A stretch of DNA of 64,000 nucleotides from Camelus ferus. Its lineage: Eukaryota. A program made the translations under genes and the position numbers. Positions 44,441 to 56,956 of this stretch are shown one piece after another. Numbering within the stretch: position 1 is the first letter of the stretch; each line of letters begins with the position of its first letter. Below the pieces are notes generated by a model that searched no databases, was not told the origin of the DNA, and worked only from the letters and a program-made list of their open reading frames with translations. Location of the stretch: contig NC_045696.1 of NCBI RefSeq assembly GCF_009834535.1, positions 17,424,001 through 17,488,000 of the forward strand, given 5' to 3'.

Positions 44441-47400
44441 TCTTAAAAAATTTTATTATTTCCAATTTTATTTAATTTTCAAATTTCTGTACCTTAAATT
44501 ATGAGACTTCTGACAGATTTTTAAAGCACTGATCAAAAGTTCAAACAGTAGTTTTGCTGTTGCAGCTTTTTGTTTGTACTTAGCCATCCTCAGATATACT
44601 ATTAAAACTTCCAAATCAATGCTCCAAAATATATAAAAGTCCTAATTAGTTCCTCAAACATTTAGTCAGCTTCTAACTATCCAAGTGTAAATTTTGAATA
44701 TAGAATTCTCAATAACATACTCAATAACACATTCATGATTCAGCTTGTTTCTGAATTGTTAATTTAAAGTTAGTTGTTGGTATTTGTTAATAAAAGTATT
44801 TACTATAGCTATTAAAACATAGTCATTACTTAATTACAGCTTTTTTAGCTATTAAAGACAGAGAATAATGAAATTTCCAAAGTGAAAACTTGAGTGATGT
44901 CTGTATTGATTGGATTTAAGATGTGAGGAAAGGGAAGAAATCCAGAAAAACAGTAAGCATAAATGGAAGATATCACTGAGATAAATAAAGGGGGGTGGAA
45001 TTAGAAGTAAAGAAAATGAGGTCAATATAAAACAAAATGAATTTATGGTTCTTGGGGCACTTCTAAGTGGAAATGTTGAAGATCTATATAGTTGAAGAGA
45101 TACTTGATGTTTATTGGTTATTATTGCTACATTTTACTATCTTCTATCTTTGACTTTCAAAATTTGGAAAATCTTGGTACCTTCTTGACTCATTTTCCAG
45201 CTAGACACTTAAGATCATTTTATCTCTTTTTATACATTTACAACAGAATGAGAAGCAAATTGTGTTTTTGTACCATGTTCTTCAATATTGGATCCATTTT
45301 AAGAGCTGCTAGAAAATACTCATTTTTCTGAATTAATTAAATTCATAGTGCAGTATCAGTATAGCTCATGGGTTAAAGTGTTTCAAATTTTGAAATGATC
45401 CAAAGAAATGCTTAAGCTTTAACCTAAGAGAAACATTTTTCCTTTGAGTGAAATGATTAGGTGGAATATAAGCAAGATCTTAATGCAACTGATATGCAAC
45501 ATTTAATTGTTAAACTAAATTGTTTTTGGTGCTTTAATATGAGGAATTTTTAATTAACTTCACTTTTCAATTTGAAATCAAATATAGATAATTTGAAATA
45601 AAAATGTTTTAACTACATGGAATTTAAAAAGGAAGTTGATCAAAAATTATATTAAACCAAAAAGATAGGAAAAAAGAAAGAAGGAAGGAAGCTTATAATT
45701 TTAAGTGTTCACATTACACCTGTCCCAAACAATCAAAGAAAAATCTGTGAACCAAAATTAGTCTCTCAAGAAATTTTACTAAATTTCCACTAAAATTTGC
45801 TTTTTTTAGCTTAGTTATCAAAATGAAGCAACACACTCAAAACTAAGAACATGGAAATATGTATATATTAAATTTCAAATATAAATAGTAATGAGGAAAA
45901 CAAATATATTTTACAGATAAACAATGTTAATAGGTGAATTTTAAATATTCATTAATTAGATTATTTAATATGTAAGTGTTCATTAAACAATAAAATACCA
46001 GCAGAGACATATTTTTCCATATGCGTTTATTTTACCTGAAGAACAGTGAGTGGTTTCAGCACTAAATCCACATAGATAAGACATTGTATTAAATTCAGTG
46101 TCATTCCAACATAGCACATAAAGAAAATTTTTGTTTTCACTTGAGAATGCCAAACAATTAACTAATGTGTATATGTGAATGTATGTATGTGTACATATAC
46201 TCATATGTACAAATATGTGTACACATATAAACACATGTATAAATGTCTTTACATATGCATTTATCTATCTAGAACTGTATCTTAGATAAGACTGGTAACA
46301 GAATGTAGAGGTCATGAAATAGGACTTTAAAGGCTTTGGTATTGAGTCCCATTTACTTGTCAGCATTGCAGGTGGCACTGGTTTGCTTTGCATTCATTTG
46401 TGAAGATAGGAACTAAACCCATCACATGTTGTTCATATATATGTCAACTAGGCTAAAGAAAGGTTTTATTTTGGATGTGCAGTTGCCAAAGAATTCTGTG
46501 TTTTCTACTAGTTCTAGTTACTTCCTGGACATAGTGATATTTTTGTGACTTTCCTAAACTAGAGACTACCTGAAACACATACTGAAAACCCCTTTAGGAC
46601 CCCACTGAGCTACAACACTGAGTTTGGAGGGTAATTGCACATCCCAGCTCTTCACAATTCTCATGGTTAAGATCTAAACAAGATCCTCTTTGTTGCTTTG
46701 GCAGGAGGCAAGGAAGAAAAATCATTGTGAAATAAGCCCACAGAAATCTCCATAACAAAAGTCTACTCCCCAGAGGAAGATTGACTGGATCCTTATCCAA
46801 CCAGGGGAATGGCATCTCTCATATTCCAGTCTCCTCCATCAGTATATCTTACTTGAATTTGTATCTTTGAGTGTATATTCTTTAGCCATACATAGTATGC
46901 TTCTGCCTTATTTCAGATTAATACACAAATACTATCCTCCTGACCTGGTCTTATACAAATTTTATCATTGTACTTTTGAGATGTATACATATTTTAATAT
47001 AACTCTCATTAGCCTCTGTAATTATATTGTAGGAATTATGTATCTGTTCTATTGAGAGATATTAGAATATCTCTCTAGCAATGAAAAAATGTAAATTAAA
47101 CCAATAATGAGAACTCATTCACATATTTTATAAAATGCTAAAAAATATAGCAGTTTAAAATGAAAAAAAAAATCTAGCAAGATCAAGTTTTAGGTGTTGG
47201 ATTATGAAAAAACAGGGAGTGAGTTTCTGGCCATGACTTACTTTTGTGCACAGAAAGGAATTTGGCCTAACAATGCTTTGACCCACTAGGATTGTTTAAG
47301 GGAAAGATGGGGCCTACTGTGGACAAGCTTCAGGCTGCACCCAGTCCCTTCCACCTCCTCTACCACCTATATAAGTGAGATCAATTTCTATTTTAAAAGC

Positions 47401-47716
47401 AAAGTTAGGGAGAAATGTTTTCTAGAACATAGCTGGCCACCCCTCCCCCAGCCTAACTGCCCATCCAGGATGTCTGCCACTTGTTTACCTTAGAGATGGA
47501 ACACTTTGCAGGATTCTGAGGGGTGGTCAGTTAAGGCTTACAGGACACTCACTGGTCCTCAGAGGCAGAGCTGTGGAGCCCAACACAACCATGGAGGGCC
47601 AGCTGTTCGCCACTGGATCCTCTTTCCAGCTGATTCTGGAACACCTATGGGGTGCTCTGCTGGTGATTGCTGAAAGCTTGAGGCACATCCCAGGTCTCCC
47701 TGCATTGTTCTGAGAG

Positions 47717-48712
47717 ATGCTGGTATGCACTGTGATGGTGGTTGTGATAGTAAAGAGACTAAACACTTTAAGATGTATGAAGTTGCTAGCCAAAAGGTGT
47801 TCTGCCCACAGTGAAGTCTATGGAAAAGGTGGTGAGAATACTGAACCAATGACACAAGGTGAAGAAGCCCTCAGGCCACCTGGGTTGGAGGCCAGTCCTC
47901 CCATGTTACAAACCTTGTGCCTGTTGGCAATGAATACAAACCTAAGTAAGTCATCCCATCCTACCACTGTGGACTTTCTGGAAAAGGCACAGAAGACCCA
48001 GCCTCCTCAACTTTCCCAGGTGACCAGTGGAAAACCCATCTTAAAAGCATCAGAGAAAAATGGAGAACAACTTCAGAAGAAAATAATGAATAATGTGAAT
48101 GAAAATACTCATTTTCCAGAAAGTCCAGAACTACTTGCTCAAGAAATAGCCAGATGGAAGCAGAGTGTCCAGGAAATGGAGGAGGAGAAAGAAAGGCTGG
48201 TGCAGTCAAACACACTGATGGAGCAAGTCCTGAATGATAATGTCCGCCAACTAACATCAATGGCTGAATGCCTTCTGAAGGCCATCCCGTTGCCTAACTT
48301 TCTTGGAGATCACTTGCTATATGGGAACCTGAAAGGCCAGTGGAAGAGGGAAGCAGAAAATGGTGATCAGTCCATTCATCAGTCAGAAGCTGATCTGCAG
48401 GGTGTCATTGATGATGTTGATTTCAACGTATCCCTTCAGAGTCCTGAACAGGGCCATCAGGAAATATCCCAAAGATTGCGGGAAGAAAAGCAAATGAATG
48501 AAGAGCTTGCAGGGCAAATATCAAGTCTCCAAATGGAAGAAGGGTCTCTGCACTGTGAGAATTCACAGCTGGAAAGGGAGACTCAGCAGCTGAAGCTGAA
48601 TCTTCAAATTCTGCCTGAAGTACATGAAGATTATTTAATGCAACTTCAGAAAAAAATTGAGGAGGAAGTGCGCTGCTTAGAATTGGAGAAAAAACTTCCC
48701 AGTCTGTGCTAA
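47717..48712 (+). CDS. 331-aa truncated cTAGE-like ORF (N-terminal hydrophobic anchor plus coiled coils); translation unproven
   Basis: Longest ORF in window; MLVCTVMVVVIVKR anchor then coiled-coil region resembling cTAGE5 CC1/CC2. Confidence 0.5.
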   Translation: MLVCTVMVVVIVKRLNTLRCMKLLAKRCSAHSEVYGKGGENTEPMTQGEEALRPPGLEASPPMLQTLCLLAMNTNLSKSSHPTTVDFLEKAQKTQPPQLSQVTSGKPILKASEKNGEQLQKKIMNNVNENTHFPESPELLAQEIARWKQSVQEMEEEKERLVQSNTLMEQVLNDNVRQLTSMAECLLKAIPLPNFLGDHLLYGNLKGQWKREAENGDQSIHQSEADLQGVIDDVDFNVSLQSPEQGHQEISQRLREEKQMNEELAGQISSLQMEEGSLHCENSQLERETQQLKLNLQILPEVHEDYLMQLQKKIEEEVRCLELEKKLPSLC

Positions 48713-49478
48713 AATGTGAAGTCCACATATCAGAATCACAGCTTCTATAGGAAGATGGCAGAAGATGTGGGCAAACAGTTAAAGGGCAACACTTCCTACC
48801 ACTGAAAGGAGATCCTCTTCCATGAGAAAAGAGCTCAAGAATGCTGGATGTTGGCTGTATCCACTGAGAGAAAGCTCAAGAAGCTAAAGAAAAGAAAATG
48901 ACCACAGAAGGCAAATGCTGGCCAAGGTTGATTCGAAGTTCCAGCCTTTCCCAAAGAGCCCCTGTGTCCCTGCTGCTCCACCTGCAGCCCACAGAGGCCT
49001 TGAAGTGTCAGGAGATCACCTTTGCCATGCTCCCTAGGGTGGGGGATGTTTATGCCATGAGATCTCAGGGATCTGGGGTCTTCTGCATGTTTGACTCATC
49101 TTCCCTAGAATTCAAGTCCTGAACACCCAGAACCAGGGATAAACACCTGTATGTATTTCTGTTAAATTAATTTTGACTAACCTCTTTAGCTAAGCTACAA
49201 TTGGTAAATTGATGTCACAGTTACTCTTACCAGTATAGAATTACAACTTATTGTAGTAATATTTAAAAATTGATTTTCAGAGATATATGGTTTTCCCAAA
49301 AGATTTTTTGGAATTAAGTACTGTAAGTATTGTATCTTGATTTAAATTAAACACCACTCATGACTTAGATCACCCTCTAAGTTTGACATGAGTAAGATAA
49401 ATTTGAAATGATAAAAATAATTATCTGTAAGCTATGGCTAATATTGTAAATCTATGTAATTAACCTAATACTCATCTG

Positions 49479-49517
49479 AATAAATTTTGGCTGGTTTTTA
49501 AAAAAACCCAAAAAAAG
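49479..49517 (+). terminator. PolyA signal and retroposed polyA-tail remnant of copy 1
   Basis: AATAAA 49479-49484 followed about 15 nt later by aaaaaaacccaaaaaaa. Confidence 0.65.
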
Positions 49518-50389
49518 TTAAACAAGACGAGACCTCATTCAAATTATATTTTTAATAGTTTAGTTCTAAACTTGTAGTTTAGTGCTAAATTCGTAAAATT
49601 AGTTTTGTAGTTCATAGATTAGAAACCAGAATTTGGAAGTATCTATTTCTTGTTTTATAATTGTTTCTTATCCTGTGTAGTTTTGCTTAAGGGTCCATTT
49701 TTTCCTTAACAATTCTAAAGTTTATCAGTCAAAATGAAAAAAGTTTTGATGGCAAAACACACATATAAACACACATACACACACAAACCACAAGGCAGAT
49801 ACTAATCCCTCTTAGTGGCTTTGTGAATACCTGAAAAATGTAAAAAGGGAGTTACAAATTTAAGAAATTTTTTAAATAAAAAAGTAAACTAAAAAATATG
49901 TGTGTATTAATTATATTTAGACAATAGATTTTAAATCATGTGCACATAAAAGTGGCATTTCCTGATCATTCAGACCAAATTCCAACCAAAAACTTCATAC
50001 AAAAGGTGCAGACAAAAGAGACTATGAAGATGGTGGTTCAGAGCTGTGGCAAGGATGAGGGAAGGACCAAGGATGTGGGGCTCCAGGTGCTAGCACTTAA
50101 AAGACTGTTTCAACTTTTGGGCCTGGAGAGAGGGGAGGGAAGTGATGTCACCTAAGCGCAGTGAGGGACTGTCAAGGGAACAGGAAAACTGCCCCCACCC
50201 TCTGTTCTCCTGTCCTCTCATTTCCTGCAGTAGTAATGGGCAGTCACCCAGGGGGCCTGGGTAGTGCAGATGGGGGAGTCAGCCTTGGACTAGAGCAGGC
50301 CAAGAGAAAAAAAGTAATTGGAGAATGACTAGCACACTTGACTCTCTTTGATCCAACGTATATGTGTGTATTTTATTGTCATCATTCAC

Positions 50390-51080
50390 ATCCATGTATT
50401 TAATAAATGTCTGTGGCGTTTCTATGATGTCTGCAGCAATGTTGTAGATGTTTGGTAGGAAGCAATGAAAACATCTCCTGATCTGATGAGACACGTGGGC
50501 CTCAGAGACAATCCAGTGAGGGGCAAGGTCAGATAATAAAGATCAATGAAACAAATGATGATATCTACTCTGAGGACAATTTCAATAGGATGATGGATGA
50601 TTAGGGTGACAGGGTAACACTCAGGAGGTGACATTTATGTGATATCAAACCACAAGAAGAGTATCCTGGGAGGCCAGGGGACATAAAATTATAAGCAGAG
50701 AGAAGAGGAAGAATAAATTGCCAGAGAACTGGGTTTCTGGGGCAGAGAAAGCTGGGCTAAGGTGAAGGGAGAGCAGGGGAGGTGGCCAGGGAGCAGGGAC
50801 CATTGCAAAGGCTTGTCTTTAGTGCAGCTTAGGGACACCAGACTTTAGACCTGGAGGCTGAAGGTTGATAGCTGCGGACATGGTGTGATGTATGTTCTAC
50901 GGAGATCTGCGTGGCTGTGGAGAGGGTGGAATGTGGGGAGGGGGAGTAAGTGTGGGATTTTGGTGAGGTTCCTCACGGGTCTGCACTGGGTTGGTTGTCA
51001 CAGAAATCCAGCAGAAAGACAGATGGGGCTGAGTTTGAGCAGTTGTGGGATCAGAAAAGATGAATGAAGAATGACTCTTA
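50390..51080 (-). mobile_element. Degraded L2 fragment within the duplicated segment
   Basis: Purine-rich L2 antisense motifs; paralogous to about 34910-35520. Confidence 0.6.
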
Positions 51081-52589: not shown

Positions 52590-52843
52590 AATTATTAAAC
52601 TTTGCTTCTAGAGCTCTTCTGAGTACAAAGCAAAACTGAAAAGTACAGCGAGTTTCCATATACCCCTTCACATTCAAAACTTCCCAAGCAACATCTCCTA
52701 CCAGAGTGGTGCATTTGTTACAACTGATGGACCTACGTTGACATATTACCATTGTTTACATTAAAGTTCACTCTCCGTGTTGGACAGTCTATGATTTTGA
52801 GAAAAGTATAACCACATGTATCTATCAATATAATATCATACAA
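52590..52843 (-). mobile_element. L1MC-type 3' end, truncated at the ERV junction
   Basis: aaagtacagcgagtttccatatacccc, accagagtggtgcatttgttacaactgatggacctacgttgaca, ends atcataca. Confidence 0.8.
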
Positions 52844-54478
52844 GACTTTATGGTGTCCTAAGTTTCCCAAAATACAAAGCTAACTGCCAACTGGGAGGAT
52901 TTCTCTAGCTAGTAGGTTATTGCCAAAACTAAATTCCAAATTTGTCCCTTATGTCTAATCCTCTGTGTGTTTTACTCAACAATAACAACCCAGACCCAAT
53001 TCCATGAGAACTGGAGGACATAGCCTGGAGGATAGTTTGATCAACCCAGCTGCCCTTCGGTATCCCAACTGTCAGATTTCTTATTCCTTTATTGTACATG
53101 AAAAGGAAAGAAAGGAGTACCCATGGGGTGCTCCCCCCAAAACACAGGGATCACCATTGATCCATAGGGTATTACAGCTGGCAAATGGGCCCTGTGTCAT
53201 GGGGATAGACCCCTGTCTTAGAGCCATTATGGCCATTATGGCCACTGCCTTTTTGGTTACGGCACTAAGAAAATCATTGTGGGATCTCCCTTTAGCCATT
53301 TTTTACCTCATTTACCAGAAGCTCTGCTGAAATCTCATCACACTCCACATTTCACAGCCCACTACCTCGCCTCCTGTGAAGTCCTTTAGTTAACTACTCC
53401 TCAAATAACTCTTTTATGTTGTAATAACTATAATCTGGTTCCTTTTATCTACTGTGTTGCTGACTACTTCTCTCTGATGGCCACCTCCTGAATCCTTGTG
53501 ATGATCTACAGGAAATTCAGTTGGGTAGCACTGATGTCTCATGGTTCACTGATGGTTCTTACTTAAACGTTACAATGGCAAGTATCATGCTGGGTATGCG
53601 AATGCAACTCCTTTTGATGTTGTTGAGGCAGCATGTTTAACCTATGGCTACTTCAGCCCAATACACTGAATTATATGCTCTTCTATGAGATTGTACGTTA
53701 ACCGAGGACAAAACTGCCAACATTTATGCTGATAGTAGATGTACTTTCGGAGTAGCTCATTTTTTGGAATACTGTGGAAGTAGCATGGCTTCCTTAATTC
53801 TATTGGAAATAAAACTAAAAGTTGCCCAATGTTTAGAAATTATTGGATGAAATAATTTTACCTGCCACTTTAACCATTATTAAGAATCCAGGGCATTCTG
53901 AACTTGAATTTCTGGAAGCTCAAGGAAATCATTTTGCTGATACTTCTGCAAGGAATGCTGCCTTTAAAGGGATGGACAGCAGCCAAACCTGTGTCAAAGG
54001 GATATTTCCCCAAATGATAATTCAGAAAAACTGGCTAGAAAAGCCCAAAAACTGGCCTTAGAAAAGGAAAAACAAGAATGGAAATTCAAACATTTTTGGC
54101 TTGATAAAAAGAGGCAGCTCTGGTTTGGACCAAATGACAAACCAGTGTTATGGAGACTAAAATTCCCGCTCCTCACTACCAATCATGCATTAGACCATAG
54201 GTCTACTGACAAAATTACAGTCTTCATGAATCAGTATTGGTGGGGAAACATTAACATGACCACAAAAAGCACCTACCTCACTTGTTCCATTATCCAAGTT
54301 CAATGTAGAGGAGCCTGTTCATACTGCTTCTGGACATTTTAAACTCCCTAATAGACCATTCAAGTTCTGGCAAATGAATGTCATACAACTTCCTCCTTCT
54401 AACTGGTATAAATATGCTTTTCTCATGGTCTGTATGTTTTCACACTGAACTGAAGCCTTCCCTTGCAGATAAGCTACA
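52844..54478 (+). mobile_element. Class I ERV pol fragment (RT thumb/connection, RNase H, integrase N-terminus), no LTRs
   Basis: LVGYC-like RT thumb, WFTDGSY (53542), IYADSR, PGHS...GNHFAD RNase H motifs, integrase zinc-finger remnants and WQMNVIQLP...TEAFPCR; many stops. Confidence 0.9.
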
Positions 54479-55418
54479 ATTTTCTCTGAAGTTGCATTAA
54501 ATAATCTTCATGTACTTCAGGCAGAATTTGAAGATTCAGCTTCAGCTGCTGAGTCTCCCTTTCCAGCTGTGAATTCTCACAGTGCAGAGACCCTTCTTCC
54601 ATTTGGAGACTTGATATTTGCCCTGCAAGCTCTTCATTCATTTGCTTTTCTTCCCGCAATCTTTGGGATATTTCCTGATGGCCCTGTTCAGGACTCTGAA
54701 GGGATACGTTGAAATCAACATCATCAATGACACCCTGCAGATCAGCTTCTGACTGATGAATGGACTGATCACCATTTTCTGCTTCCCTCTTCCACTGGCC
54801 TTTCAGGTTCCCATATAGCAAGTGATCTCCAAGAAAGTTAGGCAACGGGATGGCCTTCAGAAGGCATTCAGCCATTGATGTTAGTTGGCGGACATTATCA
54901 TTCAGGACTTGCTCCATCAGTGTGTTTGACTGCACCAGCCTTTCTTTCTCCTCCTCCATTTCCTGGACACTCTGCTTCCATCTGGCTATTTCTTGAGCAA
55001 GTAGTTCTGGACTTTCTGGAAAATGAGTATTTTCATTCACATTATTCATTATTTTCTTCTGAAGTTGTTCTCCATTTTTCTCTGATGCTTTTAAGATGGG
55101 TTTTCCACTGGTCACCTGGGAAAGTTGAGGAGGCTGGGTCTTCTGTGCCTTTTCCAGAAAGTCCACAGTGGTAGGATGGGATGACTTACTTAGGTTTGTA
55201 TTCATTGCCAACAGGCACAAGGTTTGTAACATGGGAGGACTGGCCTCCAACCCAGGTGGCCTGAGGGCTTCTTCACCTTGTGTCATTGGTTCAGTATTCT
55301 CACCACCTTTTCCATAGACTTCACTGTGGGCAGAACACCTTTTGGCTAGCAACTTCATACATCTTAAAGTGTTTAGTCTCTTTACTATCACAACCACCAT
55401 CACAGTGCATACCAGCAT
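54474..55418 (-). CDS. 314-aa truncated cTAGE-like ORF; translation unproven
   Basis: Identical to the copy 1 ORF for the first 311 aa, ends MQLQRKL then TAG at the ERV junction. Confidence 0.45.
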   Translation of the reverse strand: MLVCTVMVVVIVKRLNTLRCMKLLAKRCSAHSEVYGKGGENTEPMTQGEEALRPPGLEASPPMLQTLCLLAMNTNLSKSSHPTTVDFLEKAQKTQPPQLSQVTSGKPILKASEKNGEQLQKKIMNNVNENTHFPESPELLAQEIARWKQSVQEMEEEKERLVQSNTLMEQVLNDNVRQLTSMAECLLKAIPLPNFLGDHLLYGNLKGQWKREAENGDQSIHQSEADLQGVIDDVDFNVSLQSPEQGHQEISQRLREEKQMNEELAGQISSLQMEEGSLHCENSQLERETQQLKLNLQILPEVHEDYLMQLQRKL

Positions 55419-55544
55419 CTCTCAGAACAATGCAGGGAGACCTGGGATGTGCCTCAAGCTTTCAGCAATCACCAGCAGAGCACCCCATAGGTGTTCCAGA
55501 ATCAGCTGGAAAGAGGATCCAGTGGTGAACAGCTGGCCCTCCAT
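54474..55544 (-). pseudogene. cTAGE5/MIA2-family retrocopy, copy 2 (3'-truncated)
   Basis: ATG at 55544, same codon-41 TGA as copy 1, near-identical to copy 1 up to 54485, then fused to ERV integrase. Confidence 0.9.
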
Positions 55545-56956
55545 GGTTGTGTTGGGCTCCACAGCTCTGCATCTGTGGACCAGTGTCCTGTGAGCCTTAA
55601 TTGACCACCAGTCAGAACTCTGTAGAGTGTTCCATCTCTAAGGTAAACAAGTGGCAGACATCCTGGATGGGCAGTTAGGCTGGGGGAGGGGTGGCCAGCT
55701 ATGTTCTAGAAAACATTTCTCCCTAACTTTGCTTTTAAAATAGAAAGTTATCTCACTTACATAGGTGGTGGTGGAGATAGAAAGGTCTGTTAGCAGCTTG
55801 GATCTTGGCCACTCTAGGCCATGCCTGGCCCTATAGCAAACCTATGGGTTTAAGGCAGGAATAAGCTACACTTTGTTCTGTGCTCAAGAGCAAGTCAGGA
55901 CAGAGTGGTGGGGCCCTTCCCATTCTCCTTATTTAACTTATTTTTCTTTTTCCTTCTCCAGGATGTCTAATGATGCCCCCAAATTCTAAAGATCTGCCTT
56001 TTATAAGGCTCCCTCTTTCCTTGATTTTGATCATTATGAGCAGGCACAGGTCCAGGCTGAAGTTTAAGATATTTAATGTCTAAAAATGTACAATGTGGTG
56101 GCTGGCACAAAAAGTGTGCTTAATAAATGACAGCTAACTTCATGTAATAAAACTACCAAAAAAATCTAGAAGGAATTTTGGGTTAGTATCTATATCAGTA
56201 TGATATTGGAAGGAATAAAAACAGTAAACAACAACATAGAGAAAAAAATGCTTGATTTGACCACATAAAAATTCAGAGAATATAGGACATATCAAAAAAT
56301 TGTATACAAAATTTAAATGAAAATACTATCTATCTATCCACCTTTATCTCTAGTTACCATACAAAATATATTTAGAATAAAATGAAAAATGCATTTAAAT
56401 TCAAAATTTTAAAGTTCAAAAAATCAGAAATGTCACTGTACAGAGAAAAAATTAAGCAAAAATAAAAATTTTTACTCATGAAACTACTAATATTTTGAAA
56501 GATATTTTTACTAATTTTTGGCTGTGTTCTTCTAAACTGAGCATTCTAGTCCTGCTGGTGTGAGAGTTAACTGGTATAAATGCTCTGGAATACCTCTGCT
56601 GAAACATACCAAGACTCTTAAAAGGTCTTAACTTTGACATATTTGAGCATAGGATACATCCTCTGTTATAAGAGTACATCCCAAGTACATAATTAGTATC
56701 TGGACCAAATATGCTGCCTCTTTGCTGAAAATATTTATTATAGAATAGATTGTAATAGAAGATATCTGGAAACATCACTCAAAGTTTGAATACAAAGAAA
56801 GATTAATTAAACTCAGTTCAATTCATGATGATACCTGGGTATGTGAAACTAATAAGAGGATTTAGGGAGCGGGCATATGACTTGATGGTTTATTGTTAGT
56901 GAAACTTTTGTTTTGGGAGTTGGATTAAAGGGTGTTTATTACTATATATGTATTGG

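Follow-up and report, generated by a model that had tools for sequence, protein, structure and literature searches.

A cTAGE/MIA2-family gene pair of Camelus ferus probably decaying in concert within a short inverted repeat

We propose that the locus described here is a dying pair of cTAGE/MIA2-family genes under concerted evolution and that the lesions in its reading frame follow a pattern of ordinary decay, a reading to which we assign a probability of roughly 0.65. The pair lies in a window of 64,000 nucleotides of C. ferus DNA, the whole stretch that was analysed. Alignment indicates that copy 1 is a full-length intronless member of the family, with the following layout:

47226..49517, plus strand: copy 1, full-length intronless cTAGE/MIA2-family unit from the 5′ leader to the poly(A) signal and a remnant of the A-rich tail (paralog homology)
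47591..49094, plus strand: copy 1, coding frame in its ancestral form (501 codons with stop), carrying W41*, K374*, R405*, a +1 frameshift and Q482* (paralog alignment)

The segment 47226-49267 is colinear with in-genome paralogs at ~73% identity, and the alignment of copy 1 to the paralogs L003 and L004 is single and unbroken (47226/47326 to 48990/49014). An AATAAA signal at 49479-84 precedes an A-rich run (49500-17); the assignment of copy 1 as intronless and processed is drawn from this tail and the alignment to paralogs, independently of a parent gene or target-site duplications. The frame opens at the family start ATG at 47591 and closes with the ancestral stop TGA at 49092-94 (codon 501). 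A protein search returned 18 proteins at E≤0.001, with cTAGE family member 15-like, MIA2 and CTAGE5 among their names. Over the entire query, cTAGE family member 15-like was 55% identical (E 1.2e-94), MIA2 of Vulpes matched the locus product at E 1.5e-87, and related database proteins displayed 52-56% identity over 432 residues. The in-genome paralogs keep intact ORFs of 492-526 aa. For the 331-aa ORF of copy 1, no Pfam family scored above threshold, the sub-threshold hits being of coiled-coil type only (DUF4200, 19.3 bits with a cut-off of 29.7; KASH_CCD; Filament), and a PDB sequence search found no solved relative. A hydrophobic stretch in the ORF product, MLVCTVMVVVIV, was spotted by eye only.

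The cTAGE family comprises intronless copies related to MIA2/cTAGE5, and several of its human members are pseudogenes. The camel locus resembles this family in its strong similarity, its lack of introns, its colinearity with paralogs and the retained poly(A) signal and A-rich tail remnant; its lineage is likewise multi-copy, with intact and broken members in one genome. In contrast to the family, the locus consists of two head-to-head copies that exchange sequence, and its lineage encodes ~500 aa with a protein identity to the in-genome paralogs of only 47-51%.

The second copy and the inverted repeat that joins it to the first are arranged as follows, X3 being one of the public runs, a DNA run, that were compared with the window:

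47385..48650, plus strand: arm 1 of the near-identical inverted repeat, with an unconverted patch at 47506-47565 (self-alignment; X3 depth)
54485..55746, minus strand: arm 2 of the near-identical inverted repeat
54477..55897, minus strand: copy 2, 5′ fragment of a cTAGE/MIA2-type gene, cut after codon ~356
54474..55418, minus strand: 314-aa ORF of copy 2, ending 3 codons beyond the arm edge in repeat-derived sequence
52843..54477, plus strand: old interspersed repeat adjoining the broken end of copy 2 (>40 genomic copies, 69-81% identity)

The arms measure ~1.27 kb and are separated by a spacer of ~5.8 kb. They had been taken to be 100% identical, which they are not, since in-register differences occur at 47559, 47564, 47609 and 48651. 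The paired extent given in the initial annotation likewise holds with a correction: near-identity spans 47385-48650 and is broken at the patch 47506-47565, where arm-to-arm identity drops to 82% with a 4-nt indel. There is one mismatch between the arms in 47566-48650 and none in 47385-47505. Arm identity is thus far above that of the adjoining homologous sequence, as the outer flank of copy 1 (47234-47384) is only 69% identical to copy 2, and the split of the two copies is old. Among 149 sites of the outer flank, 19 are specific to copy 1, 19 are specific to copy 2 and 13 are shared-derived; here the divergence between the copies equals that of either copy from the other paralogs. The 3′ part of the gene is present only once in the window. 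Copy 2 is inverted and consists of a 5′ fragment whose broken end abuts an old retrovirus-like repeat, one frame of which resembles gammaretroviral RNase H. This frame (53837-54058) matched the XMRV/MoMLV RNase H domain in a PDB sequence search (E=1.3e-5); one of two PDB searches was empty, as was a Pfam search with five frames of the spacer repeat.

The ~1.27 kb have stayed near-identical because gene conversion from arm to arm is still running. Its tract edges shift between individuals, and three patch configurations are found among window/X3, X15 and X17. In the RNA run X17, a contig covering 47134-47573 joins the copy 1 flank to a copy-2-type patch, in which 8/8 variant letters and the 4-nt deletion agree with copy 2, and in X15 a single contig spans 47385-48650 with copy-1 letters all along. 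X3 displays double depth over 47385-47505 and 47565-48650. Moreover, 48544 G>A reaches the full double depth in both of the runs X3 and X15 and is thus fixed in both arms of these samples.

CYP21A2 and CYP21A1P are a gene and a defective copy that exchange sequence by conversion. As in that pair, a full-length copy and its defective neighbour share lesions through conversion at the camel locus, where W41* is present in both arms. Unlike that pair, the two copies are inverted and neither is intact any longer. A further comparison is offered by sex-chromosome palindromes, as they are described in excerpts of PMC8327919, PMC8600007 and PMC8981503. The locus shares with the palindromes of these excerpts an arm identity of >99.6% despite an old duplication, ongoing conversion, substitutions fixed in both arms and possibly a GC bias. 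Whereas their arms exceed 8-10 kb, those of the locus reach ~1.27 kb and fall outside the classical large-arm sex-chromosome class; also unlike them, the contig that carries the locus (122 Mb) shows no evidence of being a sex chromosome, one arm of the locus is part of a truncated copy of the gene, and a premature stop is present in both copies.

The lesions of copy 1 and the shortened frame that they leave are these:

47711..47713, plus strand: TGA, codon 41, common to both arms (TGG in 6/6 aligned in-genome paralogs)
47717..48712, plus strand: 331-aa ORF of copy 1, opening at a lineage-specific ATG two codons past the stop (ATC in paralogs)
48449..48449, plus strand: C>T that segregates with a variant haplotype of the arm and changes codon 287 from CAG into TAG (X17)
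48710..48712, plus strand: TAA, codon 374, first stop beyond the arm edge (common to X15, X17 and X3)
48803..48805, plus strand: TGA, codon 405 (alignment to paralogs)
48886..48888, plus strand: A-run longer by one A, giving a +1 frameshift after codon 432, polymorphic (paralog alignment and runs)
49035..49037, plus strand: TAG, codon 482 (CAG in paralogs L003, L006 and L007)

The ancestral K at 374 and R at 405 were taken from the related protein P0030. Alignment bears out the initial description of the window copy, in which 353 paired codons hold one stop only, the TGA of codon 41 (47711-13), and 147 unpaired codons hold the TAA at 48710, the TGA at 48803, the TAG at 49035 and the +1 frameshift at 48886-88. 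The arm edge itself is marked by a 3-nt deletion and one mismatch. No differing letter was found at 47711-47713 in any of the 4 public runs compared. X17 holds a haplotype with an additional arm stop at codon 287, and the frameshift is missing from it, one base being absent at 48886-88 (7.79/7.79), whereas X3 and X15 keep the extra A. The variant arm haplotype has a depth of 5 of 13.9 in X17 and is also changed at 48426, 48427 and 48430; the database protein P0001 ends at codon 287 and has an N-to-I change matching it. The closest relatives of the lineage in other species are fragmentary ORFs, 65-236 aa long, and six of these stop at codon 250. This cross-species lesion map is made of database protein fragments and not of orthologous DNA.

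The initial annotation had raised the possibility that an intact donor at another place in the genome refreshes the arms. The four changes of the X17 haplotype fall within 24 nt in a patch-like manner, and 2/4 of their letters equal paralog states, as a donor might leave them. However, a genome-wide search for a third near-identical intact copy was negative in the 2.09-Gb source assembly: the arm DNA gave 33 matches, only the two arms were near-identical, and the next-best copies had 73% and 72% identity. In X3, the arm contig has a depth of 23.7 and the single-copy flanks have 10.4-11.7 (~2.1 times), which indicates two copies and not three, and the arms carry W41*, found in 0/6 aligned paralogs. 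We therefore reject refreshment from elsewhere, the chance of which we regard as negligible.

The contrast in lesions between paired and unpaired codons goes only weakly beyond chance. With an arm share of stop-target sites of 0.70, the 1/5 lesions in the arm yield P=0.029 at face value, and counting the edge deletion (1/6) lowers this to P=0.010. Stops only (1/4 in the arm) give P=0.08, addition of the variant stop at codon 287 (2/6) gives P=0.066, handling of the polymorphic lesions gives P 0.07-0.16, and a 70% GC bias assumed in the arms gives P=0.13-0.27. The premise of the initial annotation that conversion cannot lower the lesion rate proved only roughly right. G/C-to-A/T changes account for 70% of the stop-creating single-base changes in the arm, and the excerpted text of PMC8981503 gives a 70% GC bias in conversion for primate X palindromes; such a bias would by computation reduce the arm stop-creating rate to ~0.73 of the unpaired rate. 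GC-favouring, perhaps ancestral-favouring, conversion could in principle have erased most one-arm stop mutations with no need for protein selection, which we consider improbable, as a reduction to 0.73 is set against a ~7-fold density gap. Total substitutions per site are equal in the paired and unpaired parts (0.265 vs 0.270, Fisher P 0.90), and the stop within the arm itself arose by a G-to-A change (TGG to TGA) that reached fixation. A relative A/T-to-G/C richness of lineage changes in the arm (134:60, against 78:15 in the 3′ part, Fisher P 0.009) was counted in favour of such a bias, but the polarity of this test is unrooted and confounded, copy 1 being the outgroup to GC-rich paralogs.

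The other proposal of the initial annotation was selection on the 314/331-aa product. Branch dN/dS of this lineage is 0.64 (0.46-0.87) in the paired and 0.69 (0.39-1.24) in the unpaired part; the bootstrap of the difference spans zero, pairwise dN/dS against the paralogs did not separate the two parts, and the suggested dN/dS check, applied to this lineage and not across species, thus reveals no difference. W41* is fixed and Q287* segregates in the arm, and the arm polymorphisms (3 synonymous vs at least 4 replacement and 1 nonsense) indicate that amino-acid changes are not depleted. With a weak contrast, equal omega and a segregating stop, such selection, past or present, is no more than possible.

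RNA-library contigs from reproductive-system samples of two studies cover copy 1 from 47134 to ~49514 and the copy 2 junction, as contigs from which strand and level are not readable. The depth of X15 is flat across non-genic flanks (17.6 / 35.3 / 19.5 / 15.9), so that DNA or a long primary transcript may be present in this run. Cover of X17 is absent from 46800-47033 and past 49608, which is at most a weak hint of a discrete transcript. Cover of the locus in X19 is sparse. If the truncated product were a working gene now, the ATG at 47717 would open a membrane-anchored coiled-coil protein of 331 aa in copy 1 and 314 aa in copy 2, with codons 43-373 selected open in both arms. This would suit the long ORFs in both copies, the I43M change that creates the new ATG, the RNA-library contigs, the paired omega and the face-value lesion contrast. 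Yet the RNA-covered leader places 11 ATGs ahead of the 331-aa ORF, among them the family start, which has a strong context and opens a 40-codon ORF, and the paired omega does not fall below that of the broken 3′ part; the segregating codon-287 stop, the arm polymorphisms and the flat X15 cover also count against it, so that we judge a working gene unlikely. Equally doubtful is the fuller scenario of an old autosomal mini-palindrome that kept a shortened cTAGE-like protein alive, in which, once the first 42 residues and the C-terminal quarter had gone, a new start rescued the 314/331-aa membrane-anchored coiled-coil protein in reproductive tissue, and conversion and selection hold the frame.

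A role as RNA would instead have a transcript through both arms fold into a double-stranded hairpin of ~1.1-1.3 kb. The two arms are almost perfect complements of each other, RNA-library contigs include each arm and each junction, and X15 covers the flanks as well. A hairpin accounts for the identity of the arms but not for an open reading frame, and conversion alone explains that identity; no contig is shown to bridge both arms, strand is not given by contigs, and at ~73% identity to the arms the paralogs would be poor small-RNA targets. We consider this role very unlikely.

Decay in concert accommodates these observations as follows. Because omega is ~0.65 in both parts and lesions are few relative to ~0.27 substitutions per site, the full-length gene of copy 1 was presumably functional over most of its history. 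Its decay would be recent, with the 3′ end as the most likely place of onset. K374* sits 17 codons beyond the arm edge and the other three 3′ lesions are all downstream of it; owing to this position they would have cost nothing once K374* existed. The 373 codons upstream may have remained open until W41* arose, and this part would now be gathering more damage, with Q287* segregating. Three factors might then make the open frame match the arm: the copy 2 breakpoint sets the arm end, C-terminal truncations are tolerated first, and chance acts together with modest GC-biased conversion that removes some stop-creating G/C-to-A/T changes. We infer this order of lesions rather than observe it. Within the decay reading, staged 3′-first loss, during which a shortened protein was for some time tolerated or useful, receives slightly better than even odds, and pure chance slightly worse. 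Several findings sit uneasily with decay: the nominal significance of the 1/5 and 1/6 lesion counts, the 0/4 later fixed or window lesions in the arm if W41* came first, an ORF of 331 aa that is long for a dead gene and opens two codons past a stop, a paired omega below 1 even at its upper bound of 0.87, and reproductive-system RNA-library contigs over both copies.

The locus is a small and tidy case of concerted evolution, in which a 1.3-kb inverted pair is near-identical long after its flanks fell to 69%, and the edges of its conversion tracts still differ between individuals. It calls for no new mechanism, no hidden donor and no special protective mechanism. If selection held codons 43-373 open in related species, the locus would represent a truncated testis-type gene maintained inside a short autosomal palindrome.

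By its shape, copy 1, the full-length plus-strand unit, would be a processed, intronless copy, since it is uninterrupted and colinear with its paralogs from 47226 to ~49267 and then runs into an AATAAA signal (49479-84) and an A-rich run (49500-17). cTAGE genes are retrocopies of MIA2/cTAGE5. The 331-aa ORF matches 18 database proteins at E<=0.001, including 'cTAGE family member 15-like' of Hippopotamus (E 1.2e-94, 55% identity), 'Melanoma inhibitory activity protein 2' of Vulpes and 'CTAGE5' of Cervus. Pfam returned only coiled-coil hits for this ORF, all sub-threshold, and a search of PDB sequences gave zero matches. A 172-aa 'hypothetical protein' of Camelus ferus was 99% identical to a query from this locus in a separate database search. 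Of 94 literature matches on cTAGE, retrogenes and MIA2, the best 10 all concerned secretory function, none of them retrocopy evolution or camelids.

Copy 1 was aligned with copy 2, the inverted 5' fragment, and six paralogs, with codons counted from the family ATG at 47591.

Reading frames in the ORF listing, and stops and frameshift of copy 1
47711-13, plus strand: TGA at codon 41 (W41*); TGG in 6/6 paralogs
47717-48712, plus strand: 331-aa ORF
48710, plus strand: TAA at codon 374 (K374*), the first stop past the arm edge
48803, plus strand: TGA at codon 405, past the arm edge
48886-88, plus strand: one extra A, frameshift after codon 432, past the arm edge
49035-37, plus strand: TAG at codon 482; CAG in paralogs L003, L006 and L007
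49092-94, plus strand: ancestral stop TGA, codon 501
55418-54474, minus strand: 314-aa ORF

Two codons beyond the codon-41 TGA, a new ATG has arisen at 47717 from ATC. The alignment with the six paralogs revealed no frameshift within codons 1-353, the part paired with copy 2, and two in-frame 3-nt deletions, at the arm edge and near 49028. A related 186-aa database protein (P0030) carries K and R at the first two 3' stops. The stops, frameshift and arm-edge indel listed in the initial annotation are thus correct.

A repeat scan detected a single strong inverted pair in the window, with arms at 47550-48655 and 54480-55585 scored as 100% complementary and an outer extension (47234-47549 / 55582-55897) at 83%. 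Complete complementarity is not borne out, as the arms differ at 47559, 47564, 47609 and 48651, but their near-identity holds; the true near-identical region is 47385-48650, interrupted by a patch (47506-47565) with 82% identity and a 4-nt indel. Gapped blastn traced the homology over 47311-48659 / 55820-54477 with no match further inward, and a sensitive self-search of the window gave no further copy of 48660-50500. Over the outer flank, which is unconverted (47234-47384), the two copies are 69% identical, no closer to each other than either is to paralogs L003, L009 and L004 (69-74%); among 149 comparable sites, 19 are copy-1-specific, 19 copy-2-specific, 13 shared-derived and 7 three-way different. 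Because these flanks are as divergent as those of paralogs, the split of the copies is old. A typical mammalian neutral rate of ~2e-9 per site per year would put it tens of millions of years back, and conversion has kept the core together since. In the same flank, 47369-47376 reads TATATAAG in copy 1, TATGTAAG in copy 2 and TAAGTAAG or TGTGTAAG in paralogs; an RNA contig (run X17) begins further upstream, at 47134, so the promoter in use probably lies elsewhere.

Copy 2 stops at 54477, abutting an interspersed repeat (52843-54477, plus strand) that occurs >40 times in the genome at 69-81% identity. One repeat frame (53837-54058, plus strand) aligns with gammaretroviral RNase H over the C-terminal part of that enzyme (E 1.3e-5); the repeat's frames gave no match in Pfam. 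The two fragments join tail to tail, each truncated, and we read the junction as a probable old deletion or rearrangement.

Conversion between the arms was visible in public runs. A run search returned 24 runs, 20 of them containing the stretch, with 5 recorded as RNA; two RNA runs (X15, X17), one DNA run (X3) and one guessed to be RNA (X19) were compared over 46800-50300. In X3 and X15 alike, the arm contigs carry the synonymous 48544 G>A at full depth, a concerted change, and the tract edges in X3 resemble those of the window. A single 1266-nt X15 contig spans 47385-48650 with copy-1 letters across the patch, and an X17 contig (47134-47573) joins the outer flank of copy 1 to a copy-2-type patch, with 8/8 variant letters of copy 2 plus the 4-nt deletion. 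Arm-to-arm conversion is real and ongoing. It had also been suggested that an intact donor elsewhere refreshes the arms. The arm matches 33 places in its own 2.09-Gb, 2043-contig genome assembly, of which only the two arms are near-identical; the next best reach 73% (C1:28.3 Mb, on the same 122-Mb contig as the window) and 72% (C13), with a cluster at C1:6.04-6.75 Mb at 69-70%. There are two arm copies and no third, since depth in X3 is 23.7 over the arm contig (47565-48650) against 10.4 for the flank, 11.3 for the copy-1-type patch and 11.7 for the 3' part. An external donor is therefore out.

The arm holds 0.706 of the codons and 0.70 of the single-base routes to a stop, and the strength of the lesion contrast depends on what is counted.

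Lesions of copy 1 in the arm, by set counted
Four stops and frameshift: 1/5, P 0.029
The same with the in-frame edge deletion: 1/6, P 0.010
Stops only (same count with the polymorphic frameshift dropped and fixed lesions kept): 1/4, P 0.08
Four stops, frameshift and segregating codon-287 stop (Q287*): 2/6, P 0.066
Stops only, with Q287*: 2/5, P 0.16

In one account of primate X palindromes, conversion has a GC bias of ~70% (PMC8981503); such palindromes are also treated in PMC8327919, PMC8600007 and 10.1101/800185. In the arm, 70% of stop-creating changes are G/C-to-A/T, and a 70% bias, if applied here, lowers the computed arm stop rate to 0.73 of the unpaired rate and raises P to 0.13-0.27. 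The premise that conversion does not itself lower the rate of disabling mutations needs this qualification. Protection by conversion alone is at most modest. Along the lineage, A/T-to-G/C change is relatively commoner in the arm (134:60 versus 78:15, P 0.009), a polarity confounded by copy 1 being the outgroup to GC-rich paralogs.

No compared run with cover there differs at W41*, TAA 48710, TGA 48803 or TAG 49035. In X17 the A-run at 48886 is shorter by one base (7.79 of 7.79), which restores the frame; X3 and X15 carry the extra A. A minor X17 arm haplotype (depth 5 of 13.9) has 48426 A>T, 48427 C>T, 48430 A>G and 48449 C>T, the last making codon 287 TAG. A 224-aa database protein (P0001, from a 1102-nt contig) shows the matching N-to-I change, terminates exactly at codon 287 and has three further replacements.

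Selection on the truncated product, past or present, could also have kept the paired part open. Copy 1 lineage substitutions per polarisable site are 0.265 (262/988) in the paired and 0.270 (114/423) in the unpaired part (Fisher P 0.90). Branch dN/dS is likewise no different, at 0.64 (bootstrap 0.46-0.87; 284 codons) and 0.69 (0.39-1.24; 117 codons), the difference spanning zero. Pairwise values against intact paralogs are 0.58-0.64 and 0.38-0.57; paralog L004 gives 0.32-0.44 with L006 and L008, and the near-identical L006/L008 pair higher values (0.86 and 0.74). Both parts look like a fast-evolving gene, constrained over most of a long branch, whose function was lost only recently. A neutral history at ~0.27 substitutions per site would have left many more lesions in either part. 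Three paralogs retain intact ORFs (526, 503 and 492 aa). The latter two, L006 (C1:6.04 Mb) and L008 (6.47 Mb), differ by a dS of only 0.02-0.03 and reflect a recent duplication or conversion inside the C1:6.04-6.75 Mb cluster; their neighbours L005 and L007 are frameshifted.

Copy 1 is 47-51% identical in protein to its in-genome paralogs. Closer proteins comprise intact ones of 479-538 aa (52-56%; fox, deer and others) and ORF fragments of 65-236 aa (60-79%); the hippopotamus protein (55% to copy 1) is slightly closer to the paralogs (58-59%). As six fragments (P0010, P0013, P0014, P0021, P0025, P0031) terminate at codon 250 of copy 1, the lineage's closest relatives seem to be broken within the region paired here.

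Within the 3.5 kb compared, X17 cover is limited to 47134-49514. The X15 and X17 contigs end at 49518 and 49514, ~30 nt beyond AATAAA, where a DNA contig continues, which hints weakly at a poly(A) site. Strand and level are not readable from RNA-run contigs, both RNA runs contain the junction of copy 2 into the repeat, and the flat depth of X15 across non-genic flanks could mean that it contains DNA or a long primary transcript. RNA-run depth spikes at 47864-47908 and 48578-48618 (X15 contigs at 100 and 244; X17 bin total 122); loose ends at the former carry letters of the paralog cluster (L005-L008), and the sole one shown for an RNA-type run (X19) at the latter resembles L003. In the same libraries, this locus seems to be covered far less well than its more intact paralogs. 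An X19 contig (47289-48083) terminates, after an internal AAAA, in 12 A's absent from the genome, which could reflect internal priming, premature polyadenylation or an assembly artefact. The RNA-covered leader has 11 ATGs upstream of 47717, including the family start at 47591 (strong context, 40-codon ORF), so scanning rules would disfavour efficient translation of the 331-aa ORF. A functional 314/331-aa protein today is improbable; selection on the truncated product, past or present, is at most a possibility, given dN/dS no different between the parts, a contrast of P 0.010-0.16 and Q287* segregating in the arm.

Ordinary decay is the simplest account of the lesion pattern, and we put the probability that nothing beyond it is involved at about 65%. 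K374* lies 17 codons past the arm edge, which is set by the copy 2 breakpoint. Once K374* had arisen, the other three 3' lesions, all downstream of it, would therefore have been free of cost. Within ordinary decay, selection on a C-terminally truncated protein is marginally favoured over mere chance for the interval from K374* to W41*. The upstream part would have stayed open until W41* and would now be gaining further lesions.
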